Of a stretch of DNA of 64,000 nucleotides, positions 33,001 through 39,000 are shown one piece after another. The position numbers are program-made. Location: NCBI RefSeq assembly GCF_057098645.1, contig NZ_CM169472.1. One strand, given 5' to 3'. Every line of letters begins with the position of its first letter. Position 1 is the stretch's first letter.

Positions 33001-36000
33001 GGGTATCGTCATCCTCTCCATCACCATTGAGCACTTCCTGCCACAGATACCAGGCCTCTGCCGAAGGCTCCCGCAGCACCACGCTGACATTTCTCCATTC
33101 CGGCACCTTCACCGTTTTATGACGGAACCCCGACAGTCTGGCCAGCGCCAGTGTTTTCAGATCTTTTGCCATAAGCCTTATCCGCCCGCACCATTAACCG
33201 TTACTGTACACGCATCAGAGGTAATGCTCTGCGGCTGTTCTGCAGAATCCGTTACCTCGCAGGTATAAGCCCCCTTATCACCTGACTGCGTATTGGCTTT
33301 ACTGAAAGTGTCAGTAGTCTGTCCCTCTACCGGCTGACCATCCTTCTTCCAGGCGTGTTTATAAGGCGGCGTTCCCCCGTTGACACTGACTGACATTGTC
33401 AGCAGCGCACCGGTATTCACGGTAAGTGTCTTCTCCAGATTTTTCACAAACGCCAGCGGTACCACATAGGACACCGGTTTACCCTTCAGGCGAAGTGAAA
33501 ACGTTGCAGCCACCACGCCGTTGGTACCGGATGACCAGGTGTGCTGACGCACTTCCGCCAGGAACTTAAAGCCCTTACCGGACGGAAACTGCACCTTAAA
33601 CGCATACACCGTGTCATTGTCATAGGCATCACGCAGGGCGTTCTGGGCCTGATTCAGATAAAAATTACCCGACATGGAAATCTCGGACGACGCCCCCAGA
33701 CCGTTGATGTTCTCCTGCTCTGTGGAGCAGAGCGTGGTCACATCAATATCCTGTTTCTGACCGGCGGTGAACTGGACTTCCTTGATGGTGCAGTCCAGGC
33801 GCAGATATTCCGCCTTCTCCATGGTTTCAGCAGTCGCCGGGGCAGATGAAATCATCACCTGCGTCAGCTGTGAACGTTCATACAAAGCAGACATTCTGCC
33901 TCCTGATAATAAAAAACCCGCACGCGGCGGGTTATGGGTTCTGTTGAAAAAATTACACCGTGACCTGAAACTCCAGGGTTGCACGGTAACAGCGGTTTTC
34001 CGGAATATAGCTCTGCATTTCACTGACGGCTCCCGGGGCCAGCAGCATTATGGCTTCACGGGCGTCCTGACGTATCTGACGCGCCTGCGTCACAGTCCCG
34101 GCATAAACGTCTATCTGCACCGACACTGAGGACTCCGCCTGCCCGCCCATCACGTCCGCCGACACCGATGAAATCAGGCTGAAAACCACCCACGGAAGCG
34201 CCACCGACGGCCTGCCATCCAGCAGGGGGACCACATACGGGTACACCTGCCCGCCGGCAAGATGTGCCAGATGAGGATACAAATCCGCCTCCGTCATCGT
34301 CTCAGTACCTCATCAATGGCCCGGTTCATCCGAGCAATCGCCACCTGTGCCGCCTGTTCACTGCGCACATCAAATGCCGGGCGCACAAACGGGTGCGGTG
34401 GCATATTCACGGTCCCCATTTCCACAAACCGCCAGTAGAAAGCATTGCGCGGGTTATCCGCCTTCATGGTGTTATCGCTGTTACCGGTGTCCGGATTAAC
34501 ACCCCGGATATGCACACCGGATTCCATCCCGCCATCGCGGGAGCACCGGGAAAGGACCACCACATTGCGGCGCAGTTTTCCCCTGCGTACCGGTGCCCGT
34601 GACACCACTTCTTCTTTCAGCACATTCGCACCCGCACGGGTTGCCTCACGCAGCACCCGGTTATTTTCCGCACCACTCAGAAGCTGCAAATCGCGGCTGA
34701 TGTCCTCCAGCCCCGAAAAATCCAGCAGGGTTTCGATCATTTTTCCCCTCCCAGCCGACAGAGAATTTCCAGACGCCCGCCGGTCGCATCCGGCACGGGC
34801 AGCCCGACAACGTTCAGGATCCGGTCACGCCATGGACCACTCAGCACATGAAGTCGTGACGCTGCCGTGATTTCCCGGCCGGACTGACCGCGCACCCAGA
34901 TGCGGATTTCCGCCTGCGCCATTTCCGCACCGGACTGCATCCGCTCCCGGCTGCTCCTGCCACGGATATCCGCATGAATTTTCCCGCATGACACCCATTC
35001 TTCCGTCATTTCTCCGGCAGCATTACGGGTTAACACCGGGTTCAGAACACTTATCATCTGTGTCAGACGACCTGCAGATATTGCCATTCCTCCCTCCTCA
35101 TAACACCGTCGGACAACGCAAATCGTAAATCAGAACAGATACAGAAAAGGGGAGTTCCCCCTGAATCAGCTCTTCCCGCTCAGCAAGATCCGGATTCCGG
35201 TACAGCATCCCGGTCAGTCGCATGGCAGCCCCCTTCATCCGGGTTAATGCCTCACCAGGGATCAGCTCACCGTCCTCACTAATCACTTTATCCCGGCTGC
35301 CCTGGATGTAGGCCAGCAGCACGGCGGTAGCCTGACGAACCTTGTCCATCAGCATCTCATCATCCGCGTCATGGTCAACACGCAGATGTGCCTTGATTTC
35401 TTCCAGTGTCAGTAATGCTGTCACTTTCCACCTCCTGCATCCCGCCCACGTTTTGCAGCCAGAGTCCAGCCTGATGAATGAGCTTCTCCGGGCTTATCAC
35501 CGGTCATACTGTTGCAGTGCCACAACGAGCCCCCCCACGTCACCGTATCGCCGGGGTGGTAAGTTTCGCCGATTCTGAACACACCACGGTAGAGCATCAC
35601 CGGCAGGGAAAATGTTTTTTCCGTACGCTGGCCACTGCTCTGCCGAACCACCACAGAGAACGACCGTTCACCCGTCATGCTGACGTCAATATCCGCCACC
35701 CCGTCAACCAGGCATTCCCATCCCCGCATCCCGTACGTTTTTTCATACGCCCGCCAGAGTCCACCCTGGTGTGTGGCATACGAGCCCCGGGGAAAGGATT
35801 TTTGATCGTCAATGGCGGGGAGTATTTCCAGTGCCGTGGCATCACGCCCGTCCTGCGGAGCCGGCAGGGCACTCACCGCCTCCAGAACCGCCTTCTGCAG
35901 AACATCCGGATCGTAGTCACGACCATCACGCGGAACAGGAATATGGCTTACGGCCTCCTTCACCATCTGTTCAAGCATCGGATGCACATCATCCGGAGTG

Positions 36001-39000
36001 ATACTTTTACCGTCTGCCGGTACCGGTATTTTCGCGACCGCATCATTCACCGCCTTCTGCAGAACATCCGGATCGTAGTCACGACCGTCGCGCGGAACAG
36101 GAATATGGCTCACTGCCTCTTTCACCATCTGCTCAATCATCGGACGCACATCATCGGGGGTGATACTTTTGCCGTCTGCCGGTACCGGAATATTCGCAAC
36201 CGCATCATTCACCGCCTTCTGCAGAACATCCGGATCGTAGTCACGACCGTCGCGCGGAACAGGAATATGGCTCACTGCCTCTTTCACCATCTGCTCAATC
36301 ATCGGACGCACATCATCGGGGGTGATACTTTTACCGTCCGCCGGTACCGGAATATTCGCAACCGCATCATTCACCGCCTTCTGCAGAACATCCGGATCGT
36401 AGTCACGACCGTCGCGCGGAACAGGAATATGGCTCACTGCCTCTTTCACCATCTGCTCAATCATCGGACGCACATCATCGGGGGTGATACTTTTACCGTC
36501 CGCCGGTACCGGTATTTTCCCGACCGCATCATTCACCGCCTGCTGCAGTACATCCGGATCATAGTCACGACCATCACGCGGAACAGGGATATGGCTTGCT
36601 GCGTCCTTCACCATCTGCTCAAGCATCGGACGCACATCATCACCCGTCACGCACTTCTGTAATACCACAGACTGAGAAGCCAGTTTTTCTTCAAACGTTT
36701 GTGCCTGCGCGGCTATTTTCTCCTCAAATGTACGCTGTAAATCCGCCAGCACCATGGCGAATTCTTCGCCCAGTGCACGAATAATGGACAGTTCCCGTTC
36801 CGTCATTTTCGCAGTATCCCCCTGAACATCGCTTTCACCGCATCATGCTCTGTTTCACTGATTGCCTTATTACCGTCAGATGCGCCATCAGGCAGTTGTG
36901 CTGAGACTGTTTTCCCGGACGACGCGAACGGATCCTCACGGGCATCACGACGGGACAGCGCCTCCAGACTGTAGTTCTGCTGCTGAAGATACAGTGCATC
37001 ACCGCCGGCCAGGGGCGGCAGGTTCTCACGTTTACGGGCCTCATTGGGCGTCAGCAGCGTATTTTTCACCGACTCACCCAGCGTTTTCATGCGCCGTTCG
37101 CTGTCCATTCTCAGCAGCGTGGTGACGTCAAACTCCGTGCTCTCGTTTTCCCCCGTTTCCAGCGCCTCATCCAGTAACAGCTCAATGGACTCAATCAGCG
37201 TCTGCAGACACTGGGAATAATACTGCTGCTCCAGCGCCTCCACGTTATCACTGGAGGGAGGTTGTCCCACACCAATCTTGTAGGCCGGGACACGGAACAC
37301 CGAACAGACAATTTCAGCGGTCATTTTCAGTTGTTCCACCGTCTGCGCATCCACCGGTGAAAACGTCGTGGGGTTATATTTCGCCCCGTTGCTCAGAATC
37401 GCCGTTTTCCCCGCATTTTCGCCGGTATACCCGCTGTCCCAGTTGCTCTTCAGTTTTTTCGCATTTTCTTCCGTTATACTGCCGGGGATCTCAATCACCC
37501 CGGACGGCCTGCCGCCATTTCTGAAAAAAGACGTTGAATTTGCCTGAATATGATGCCCCTGCGTGGCAGCCAGCCCGGCAGCATACACCGGCGGCAGCCC
37601 CACAAGCGGATGAAAAAAACAGTTAAACCGGTCGTGGATCACTTCCCGGGCAGGCACCGTCACCGCCTCCGTGATCCCGCAGTTCCGGTCCGGCGTGATG
37701 CGATAGAACACCTCGCCGTCATCCGCCACCAGAGGTTCAACCCGGCTCCAGTCCAGAATACGCAGTTCTTTGATCTGCCCACGGGAGTTACGGATTTTCA
37801 GCACCACCGTATTGCCGTGACGCAGTTTGGCGTTCAGCCACAGTTCAAAAAACTGGATACGATTCTGCTGTGCATTGGGACGACGACAGAGACGGGCAAT
37901 ATCCCCCTGCCGTTTTTCACGGCGGATCCCCTGTGTATCGGTCTGCATCAGGCGCAGCCGCATTTTGGCGATATCCTGGGATATCAGCGAAATGCAAGAA
38001 AACACCGCATGAAAGGAGAGGACACTTTCCGGATCGGCTTTCACTCCCTGCTGCCAGGCACCGGCAAAAGGCTCAGCCACCGCCTGAAACAGGCTGGTCC
38101 AGCCCACCTCTTTTACATCACGTCCTGATTTCTGGTTTTTTCGGGGTCGCCGCAAAAGGTTCCACATTCGCCATGCTCCGCATCACGTTTCTTTTTCTGA
38201 CCTGCCGGACGTCGCGCTGTGATGTACTCCGCCTTCCCCAGGCGAACCAGCACCTCCGCACACGGCTGTGCCACATCACGGATATCCCCGGCCCGGGCAT
38301 CATGCGTGCCCTGCAGATACTGGATTTTTGCCATCAGTTACTGCGGGAAGCTAGCGCCTCCCGCCCTCCTCATCAGACTCAGCCGCCGGACGCAGTTCCG
38401 TAGTTCACACCGGTGATCACAGCCACCGCCGCGGTACGGCGACGACGCCAGTTGATCCAGCGCTCCGCACGGATGGCCACGCTGCCGGTCTGGAACATGG
38501 AGACCAGCTCCACCGGTGACGGTGTGCTGCTGTCGCTGGTCGGTTCAGACTGCATCTCCAGTGACGCTTCACGGGACATATCCACCGCCACACCACCGTC
38601 ATCCGCCAGATAAATATCCGGCGCATTCACCAGTACCAGCTGGTCACCCACATACTGGGAGACAATCACCGGCAGCCCCTGGAAGGTCCCGCCCAGCAGG
38701 GTCATGTCCGGATATTCCTTCTGCCCCAGCGCATTTTTACGCATGGACAGCGCCAGGGCATTCGTGCTGGACATCAGCCAGACCGCACCGGTGGGCTGCA
38801 GATTTGCCGTCACAAACTGGCCAAACGCGGCCTCGGCATCCGCATCCGGATTACCGCTTGACGCCGTGCCCTTCACATCATGGGTGATGGACGCAGGGGA
38901 GACATCTGCCACCGCCGCTTTTTTCGGGTCCACAAAGTCTGTATCCAGACGCGCCACCACAGCTTCTGCCAGCGCATTACGGACCAGTGCATCAGCAGCC

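Follow-up and report, generated by a model that had tools for sequence, protein, structure and literature searches.

A portal-coupled accessory stalk protein with a variable 162-bp coding repeat in a conserved prophage head-neck module

Introduction

The genes of MuF-type minor head proteins lie directly downstream of portal genes, and the related SPP1 gp7 binds the portal and resides in the head (PMC5576092). MuF polymorphic toxins combine an N-terminal anchor with a variable C-terminal cargo (PMC5576092). Here we describe a gene in the same slot, an open reading frame (ORF) with five tandem 162-bp repeats, called the repeat ORF below. It is located in a prophage head module on contig NZ_CM169472.1 (NCBI RefSeq assembly GCF_057098645.1), of which a stretch of 64,000 nucleotides, the window, was analyzed. 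Its product, the repeat protein, is like MuF (PF04233, PF06152) and SPP1 gp7 in the position of its gene, in the portal binding that we infer for it and in being an accessory rather than a core component, and it shares the anchor-plus-cargo layout of the toxins. Unlike in MuF proteins, the N-terminus is a single helix of ~50 aa, the body is a tandem helix-linker array and the cargo is a domain with the fold of a carbohydrate-binding module (CBM) instead of a toxin. The repeat protein matched neither PF04233 nor PF06152 even at E ≤ 10, and no homology to MuF was found.

Two further groups of structures invite comparison. The portal protein of phage P22 carries a barrel at its C-terminus. In alleles in which the repeat ORF is fused to the portal gene a long and largely helical extension likewise continues from the portal C-terminus. 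Unlike the P22 barrel, it is non-homologous, segmented by Pro/Gly/Asp linkers, terminated by a beta domain, variable in length and usually present as a separate polypeptide. If the repeat protein is read as an external fibre, the T4 fibritin whiskers, the phi29 gp8.5 head fibres, the lactococcal neck-passage structures with CBMs, collagen-repeat CBM proteins and Hoc are comparable. CBM-tipped phage fibres have in common with it a segmented helical stalk, a terminal CBM-fold domain, collagen in some homologues and a gene beside neck genes; however, they show no detectable homology to it, and its end domain is conserved and not hypervariable. To our knowledge, fusion to a portal C-terminus has no counterpart among phage fibres. 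The CBM5/12 family (PF02839) shares fold and motif with the modelled end domain, which scores below the gathering threshold of this family and for which carbohydrate binding is a prediction. In the PHROG database the repeat ORF is received by entries 2271 and 1289, both named 'portal protein', although it has no portal domain. Searches of the literature for virion proteomics and structures of phages that carry the gene gave nothing about its function.

Results

Position and Conservation of the Repeat Gene

The repeat ORF can be firmly assigned as a conserved accessory head-neck gene which is co-translated with the portal and adaptor genes and encodes an anchor, a stalk and an end domain (Table 1). 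Its ATG overlaps the stop codon of an HK97-family portal gene, and the GTG start of the gp6-like adaptor gene (Ad1) overlaps its own stop codon by 4 nt. Head-closure, gp10-like, gp17-like and major-tail genes follow beyond the adaptor. The portal ORF continues for ~40 residues past the last matched portal position, ends with ..AMFRGILRK and contains a complete portal domain. No match to PF04860 or TIGR01537 was found for the 461-aa repeat ORF, in contrast to the neighbouring portal ORF (PF04860, Table 1) and to a portal-fused relative (P0082; TIGR01537, E 1.7e-95). The assignment of the repeat ORF as a portal protein was rejected, since it has no portal domain.

The arrangement was compared in 80 loci from species-representative Proteobacteria genomes, which were obtained by a profile search of genome contigs and a trimmed alignment. 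A portal ORF was called upstream in 63 loci, and in 61 of the 80 its stop and the start of the repeat gene lie within -39 to +15 nt of each other, most commonly with an overlap of 4 or 8 nt. With the ATGA overlap in the window, this corresponds to the slot of MuF-type genes. Three further loci contain an ORF of 451-474 aa directly upstream which overlaps an over-extended start call of the repeat gene; here the portal model matched somewhere in the locus and the ORF was not assigned. An Ad1-like gene is found downstream in roughly 45 of the 80 loci (table count), in most cases overlapping by 4 nt. Gamma-, Beta- and Alphaproteobacteria are represented among the loci (Enterobacterales, Pseudomonas, Burkholderiales, Rhizobiales, Sphingomonadales, Rhodobacterales), together with a few other metagenome-assembled genomes (MAGs). 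On metagenome contigs the gene order is TerL, protease, major capsid protein (MCP), small ORFs, portal and repeat gene, followed by a small ORF or Ad1.

An exhaustive HMMER search of cluster representatives (clusters defined at 50% identity) yielded 5413 clusters at E ≤ 1e-3 and 621 at E ≤ 1e-30. The best 150 of the 5413 range from 85 to 1237 aa, most of them being stand-alone proteins at full length (214-862 aa). Distant members retain an N-terminal segment which by eye resembles a single amphipathic helix. The number of helix-linker modules varies from 0 to ~25, and the C-terminal domain is the best-conserved part. Among deposited phage genomes the gene occurs almost exclusively in Shiga toxin (Stx) phages of enterohaemorrhagic E. 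coli (EHEC) and in lambdoid phages, the exceptions being Salmonella phage FSL SP-016 and one siphovirus from enhanced biological phosphorus removal (EBPR). This near-restriction explains why no model phage informed its annotation. Many homologues (P0014 and others) carry PF28083.1 in precomputed annotations, an entry absent from the Pfam copy scanned; a curated family for the region may already exist under this accession.

In seven of the 80 loci the match covers the terminal module only and no portal gene is adjacent. Four of them were examined (L148, L154, L189 and L190), and no tail-fibre gene was found beside the module in these. In a Sphingomonas locus (L154, 3884-4177) a stand-alone module ORF of ~100 aa directly follows the head protease, and in a deltaproteobacterial MAG (L190, 3836-4156) a similar ORF of ~100 aa follows an MCP-like gene. 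L148 (3122-4189) offers no head context: here the module ends a 355-aa ORF that lies ahead of the tape-measure gene, and a primase-like gene is found still further upstream. The portal-less ORFs may belong to satellite-like or reduced elements.

The Stalk Is a Variable Number Tandem Repeat

Tandem Repeats Finder located the array at 35887..36641 with a period of 162, 4.7 copies, 94% matches, no indels and a score of 1293, which is far above chance. In the register of the protein the five 54-aa units comprise aa 56-109, 110-163, 164-217, 218-271 and 272-325. At the DNA level units 2 and 3 are 98.8% identical, and both share 96.3% with unit 4. Unit 1 is ~90% identical to units 2-4, and unit 5 shares ~77% with the others. 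Unequal exchange that keeps an array uniform would be expected to leave such a homogeneous core between diverged edges. Each 54-aa unit is itself an internal duplication of two 27-aa modules (DDVRPMIEQMVKEAVSHIPVPRDGRDY / DPDVLQKAVNDAVANIPVPADGKSITP). The array contains ten such modules, each composed of a helix of 13-17 aa and a 12-aa PxPxDG linker, and the stalk is strongly acidic with a net charge of -21 and a pI of 4.5. Pfam matches to TetR_C_35, FliG_N, DUF4244 and BssC were dismissed, because their scores are summed over the repeats and contain no individually significant stretch.

The length of the repeat ORF follows 245 + 54n aa, that is 1 to 7 units, among 100 junction contigs from IMG/VR and the fetched loci; the IMG/VR counts are softer than those from phage records and E. 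coli, as many contigs stem from draft assemblies in which repeats can collapse. Unit numbers of 3, 4, 5 and 7 were found among contigs that do not differ over 450 nt at the 5' flank and 400 nt at the 3' end. Matching regions in E. coli assemblies measured 3101, 2939 and 2777 bases; they differ by exact multiples of 162 bp, as would be the case for 5, 4 and 3 units. Direct counting in phage records and in Sakai gave four or five units: five in phage BP-4795, whose split ORF is of equal length, and four in phages 1717 (split) and 2851 (fused). The split gene of phage Lys8385Vzw encodes 245 aa and a single unit; this siphophage was induced and plaque-purified (PMC7946995). A chromosome-level E. 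coli assembly (H31) matched the five-unit copy without gaps.

Thus, near-identical units stand head to tail, and alleles that agree in all else have different numbers of them, which makes the stalk a true variable number tandem repeat (VNTR). Units are gained and lost between otherwise identical prophages, presumably through unequal homologous exchange or replication slippage. Truncated copies exist, in Sakai prophage Sp6 (379 aa) and on several IMG/VR contigs; most copies are intact. The array is likely a cause of contig breaks in short-read assemblies, because many short contigs hold 'partial' proteins.

These results agree with most of a preliminary description of the locus. Its 461-aa ORF was recovered by the ORF listing and the tandem 162-bp (54-aa) units, five in the register of the protein, by Tandem Repeats Finder, and the near-identity of the central copies was found for units 2-4. 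Its proposal of a recently expanded, recombination-prone array is supported by the near-identical units and by the different unit numbers on identical flanks, and the variation in repeat number that it expected between prophages was observed. An assembly artefact, which it had named as a possible refutation, is ruled out by five-unit alleles in independent records (BP-4795 and the chromosome-level E. coli assembly), and the array is real. The position it gave, between portal and head-tail connector genes, is confirmed by the PF04860 and PF05135 neighbours. It did not mention that each 54-aa unit is internally duplicated (2 x 27 aa), that the C-terminal third forms a beta domain without repeats or that many relatives have the gene joined to the portal gene.

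Split and Fused Portal Alleles

In the window, five G residues form part of a Shine-Dalgarno-like AGGGGG ahead of the repeat ORF (Table 1). One additional G (GGGGGG instead of GGGGG) joins the portal C-terminus to the repeat ORF in E. coli, including many O157 prophages. Fused proteins (P0082, P0015 and P0111) read ..AMFRGDT[EA]KMTERELSII.., and the window reads ..AMFRGILRK followed by a stop. Of 100 junctions, 59 had five G (split) and 41 had six G (fused). The G state is mostly linked to lineage, the nearest sequence of opposite state being found at a median of 18 differences per 500 nt, and three flank haplotypes contain both states. In Sakai, prophage Sp9 contains an intact 859-aa fusion, and Sp6 is fused and truncated. 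The 859-position 'portal protein' profile of PHROG 2271 aligns with the portal ORF at positions 1-451 and with the repeat ORF at positions 527-859. On the split allele, the Prokaryotic Genome Annotation Pipeline (PGAP) places the label 'frameshifted; incomplete'. The labels 'portal protein' and 'frameshifted pseudogene' for the repeat ORF derive from the portal fusion.

Phage FSL SP-016 shows the split arrangement with an ATGA overlap, and its portal end (..AMIRGFLTK, stop) aligns with ..AMFRGILRK (stop), so that a portal end of the pattern ..RG[IF]L[RKT]K before the stop codon is common to E. coli and the Salmonella phage. At the position of the E. coli AGGGGG it has AGAGGA and no G-run. The G-run consequently resembles a Shine-Dalgarno element that serves the downstream gene. 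Judged from these sequences, the fusion appears to be derived, by a +1 insertion in this element, and the split arrangement is probably ancestral. A second fusion, P0215, comprises 1237 aa with ~25 modules of 27 aa and was found on four contigs of a metagenomic lineage. Apparently, it is independent of the E. coli fusion. Covalent fusions of the repeat protein to the portal thus make up ~40% of the copies in E. coli and also occur in one metagenomic lineage unrelated to these.

The ratio of nonsynonymous to synonymous polymorphism (pN/pS) of the C-terminal domain was 0.19 for split and 0.175 for fused alleles, values which mix ancestral and recombined variation. Both alleles are common, are equal in pN/pS and are each present in phages recovered as inducible or plaque-forming. 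Phage 2851, a carrier of the fused allele, is described as an inducible Stx2c phage.

The alleles also differ at the 3' end. In the examined fused alleles (Sakai Sp9, phage 2851) the 405-aa part ends with ..RGRDAGG before the stop and is separated from the adaptor by a small gap (L192, 12747/12750). The examined split alleles end with ..DAGGGK before the stop (407 or 461 aa), and in the window this stop overlaps the adaptor start (35421-35424). On IMG/VR contigs both endings occur in both states, so that this length polymorphism is only loosely tied to fusion.

The portals of several Sakai prophages have been called 'defective' (PMC2669165, Table 1 therein), and the split allele was considered as a possible counterpart of these calls. 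The two do not fit: Sp9 was scored D for portal yet contains the intact fused 859-aa gene, and Sp6 is fused but truncated.

Predicted Structure and End Domain

The full-length AlphaFold2 (AF2) model of the repeat protein consists of the N-terminal helix, ten short helices with 12-residue linkers and a confidently predicted beta domain. The N-terminal helix is presumed to act as an anchor or oligomerisation element. A model of the 163 C-terminal residues calculated with 60 homologues reached a mean predicted local distance difference test score (pLDDT) of 93 and showed one helix followed by an all-beta domain. Using Foldseek, the last ~46 residues of the model superposed on the binding domains of ChiB, ChiC and ChiA1 at 1.3-2.1 A. 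The predicted three-dimensional fold of this module, which is embedded in a larger beta domain of ~135 aa, is therefore that of CBM5/12. The last ~50 aa contain the motif Y-x-x-GD-x-V-x-[WY]-x-G-x-x-[WY] which is common with CBM5/12. The PF02839 scores of the window protein and its homologues (18.1-24.8 bits) are below the gathering threshold of 26.2 bits.

In five homologues (P0128, P0129, P0150, P0151 and P0154) the beta domain is followed by 8-10 true collagen G-X-Y triplets, which implies trimers in at least part of the family. Several collagen-bearing homologues continue with a D-L-T-Q...G motif after the triplets. The window protein contains only single GRD/GKS triplets and no (G-X-Y)n run. 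A PDB sequence search with the single protein gave no match. The family profile matched de novo designed helical repeat proteins in the PDB (E 2e-11), which was read as shared helix-loop periodicity and composition and not as ancestry. No sequence or fold match was obtained to the known decoration proteins gpD, Hoc/Ig, Dec, Soc and gp12-like.

Gene Neighbourhood

The coordinates of the repeat ORF, its parts and its neighbours are compiled in Table 1. In the 645-aa ORF upstream of the portal gene, a prohead serine protease (PF04586) occupies aa 48-152 and an HK97-type capsid domain (PF05065) aa 386-635, with a coiled-coil-like segment between them. A distant relative (L102) has separate genes for protease and capsid protein. 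Between capsid and portal genes lies a conserved 73-aa ORF (38113-38334, minus strand) which shares 55 nt with the start of the portal gene; no NCBIfam entry matched it, and relatives carry it as a 'hypothetical protein'. The major tail tube protein (33178-34023, minus strand) carries a C-terminal Ig-like domain (PF13895; PHROG 'Hoc-like'). Its GTG start as called by the ORF finder is probably too far upstream, because PGAP gives 717 nt in relatives.

Table 1: Coordinates of the repeat ORF, its parts and neighbouring features in the window.
Feature	Position	Strand	Remarks
Repeat ORF	35421..36806	-	461 aa, ATG start, 50.3 kDa, pI 4.9 (ORF listing)
N-terminal region, aa 1-55	36642..36806	-	AF2: single long helix aa 3-50, pLDDT 84-89
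Tandem array 5 x 162 bp, aa 56-325	35832..36641	-	protein register
Non-repeat C-terminal beta domain, aa 326-461	35424..35831	-	pI 8.0, near neutral; best-conserved part of the family
Predicted CBM5/12-like (chitin-binding-domain fold) terminal module, ~aa 405-455	35442..35594	-	
ATGA overlap, portal stop/repeat-ORF start	36803..36806	-	translational coupling
GGGGG run in Shine-Dalgarno-like AGGGGG	36818..36822	-	11 nt upstream of repeat-ORF ATG
HK97-family portal, 454 aa	36803..38167	-	PF04860, E 7e-81
gp6-like head-tail adaptor (Ad1)	35098..35424	-	PF05135
Protease-major capsid fusion, 645 aa	38379..40316	-	lies upstream of portal

Discussion

The repeat protein was tentatively assigned as an accessory virion protein of the head-neck module which is made with the portal protein and held at the portal vertex, probably on its inner (crown) side. 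We would put this assignment somewhat short of an even chance. Tethering to the portal crown is favoured by the tolerated covalent fusion, the equal pN/pS of both alleles, the MuF/gp7 gene slot and the conserved end domain. In all solved portals known to us the C-terminal tail is located on the crown inside the head, and we know of none with an exterior C-terminus; fused stalks would thus be placed just inside the portal vertex. The N-terminal helix would dock on the flexible C-terminal tail of the portal or, in fused alleles, continue from it, and up to 12 acidic stalks with their end domains would lie just inside the vertex. The repeat protein would thereby fill the gene slot and the type of role of the MuF/SPP1 gp7 minor head proteins, in which a spacer of no fixed length connects an anchor with a working domain at the C-terminus. 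The length of the stalk seems to be under no tight constraint, so that the repeat number drifts. The end domain is highly conserved even where the hosts of the phages are unrelated. Its ligand would therefore be a conserved one and not a host-specific receptor: a glycan, for instance the peptidoglycan backbone, or else a conserved component of the head. The preliminary description had suggested a capsid decoration or accessory protein. The first term was replaced, because the ATGA overlap, the upstream portal in 61 of the 80 loci and the natural portal fusions tie the protein to the portal, and nothing ties it to the capsid shell. 'Accessory protein' remains a fair term, and we suggest the wording 'portal-coupled accessory stalk protein'.

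Several observations speak against a location at the portal crown. Fused copies were absent from the 80 species-representative loci, the pN/pS values carry the mixture mentioned above, and many E. coli copies reside in prophages that may be defective. Fused alleles retain the internal ATG and the Shine-Dalgarno-like run, so that free protein could still be made from them and go elsewhere. In the AF2 model the stalk has a pLDDT of 38-60 and the relative arrangement of its parts is undefined. A CBM-fold end, an acidic stalk of variable length and collagen runs in homologues are features expected of external trimeric fibres, and the best matches in the viral structure library BFVD are collagen-repeat, CBM or tail-fibre-annotated proteins. 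The main rival reading, possible albeit on the unlikely side, is therefore that the protein forms an external neck or head fibre, a whisker or adhesin, with trimers attached near the head-tail junction by the N-terminal helix and a CBM5/12-like tip binding glycans on cells, mucus or particles. The neck genes adjoining the repeat gene fit such a fibre, and the tail tube of the window phage already has an Ig-like domain of the adhesin type. However, fusion to the portal C-terminus, a site that is interior in the solved portals known to us, is frequent, and purifying selection is equal with and without it; no part of the protein is as conserved across very different hosts as the end domain, unlike receptor-binding tips; and two stand-alone modules (L154 and L190) adjoin head protease or capsid genes, none of those examined being located by a tail-fibre gene.

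An improbable alternative is a factor required for assembly only, a portal-tethered, scaffold-like nucleator whose C-terminal domain binds the co-inherited capsid protein and which is later removed or left as an inert remnant. The family was found only with a head module of the type protease-MCP, portal, repeat gene, Ad1, its C-terminal domain is conserved, the acidic, elongated and helical body is like that of scaffolding proteins, and fusion to the portal is tolerated. Moreover, prolate heads were described for phages said to have very similar morphogenetic genes or to be close relatives: O157 Sakai lambdoid particles measure 44 x 95 nm (PMC2669165), and PhiESI, which is 97% identical to FSL SP-016 over 51% coverage, has heads of 40 x 89 nm (bioRxiv 10.64898/2026.03.17.712176). 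The head module may build prolate capsids, provided that these particles carry it. On the other side, the MCP already comes with a protease, from which a coiled-coil segment separates its capsid domain, a range of 0 to ~25 stalk modules is hard to reconcile with a ruler, and no similarity to known scaffolds was found. The G-run itself could be a programmed -1 frameshift site or a phase-variable switch which provides a short portal and an extended isoform from one allele. A -1 slip of tRNA-Gly on ..A GGG GGA UA.. yields exactly the natural fusion sequence, the AUA codon that follows is rare in E. coli, and three flank haplotypes contain both G states. Nevertheless, this is very unlikely: there is no X XXY YYZ heptamer at the run, the downstream RNA structure is weak (z -1.8; 12 of 200 shuffles fold as well), and the site is not conserved, as the Salmonella relative has no G-run and the portal overlaps of distant relatives differ in frame and length. 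In addition, the G state is mostly fixed in lineages, and five or six G are short for phase variation at a high rate. Hardly credible at all is a decaying pseudogene or assembly artefact, that is, the frameshifted portal remnant which PGAP annotates on the split allele and which the truncated copies (Sakai Sp6 with 379 aa, several IMG/VR contigs) might suggest. The portal domain is complete at 454 aa, the split form is usual in distant relatives and present in inducible or plaque-forming phages, most copies are intact with a pN/pS of ~0.19, and the five-unit allele recurs in independent records.

The locus is moderately interesting rather than categorically new. A family of more than 5000 clusters, whose slot in a common prophage head module is fixed, has been uncharacterised and mislabelled, and labels that are artefacts of a one-base fusion affect the annotation of EHEC/Stx prophages and judgements of prophages as 'defective'. 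The 162-bp array provides a polymorphic marker within otherwise near-identical O157 prophages. The natural split and fused alleles and the variants with 1-7 units in inducible or plaque-forming phages represent a ready allelic series for a portal-attached appendage. It is conceivable, but doubtful at present, that these proteins form a new and widespread class in siphophage-type prophages of Proteobacteria: internal head proteins tethered to the portal crown, with a variable acidic leash and a domain of glycan-binding fold inside the capsid. If so, virions of fused alleles would contain 12 copies, which might be released with or after the DNA, for instance to engage peptidoglycan, or might organise the DNA or the head axis in prolate capsids. 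An interior location would add a new type of portal-bound head protein beside MuF/gp7, and with an exterior one the siphophages of Gram-negative bacteria would gain a CBM-fold adhesin of the neck or head.

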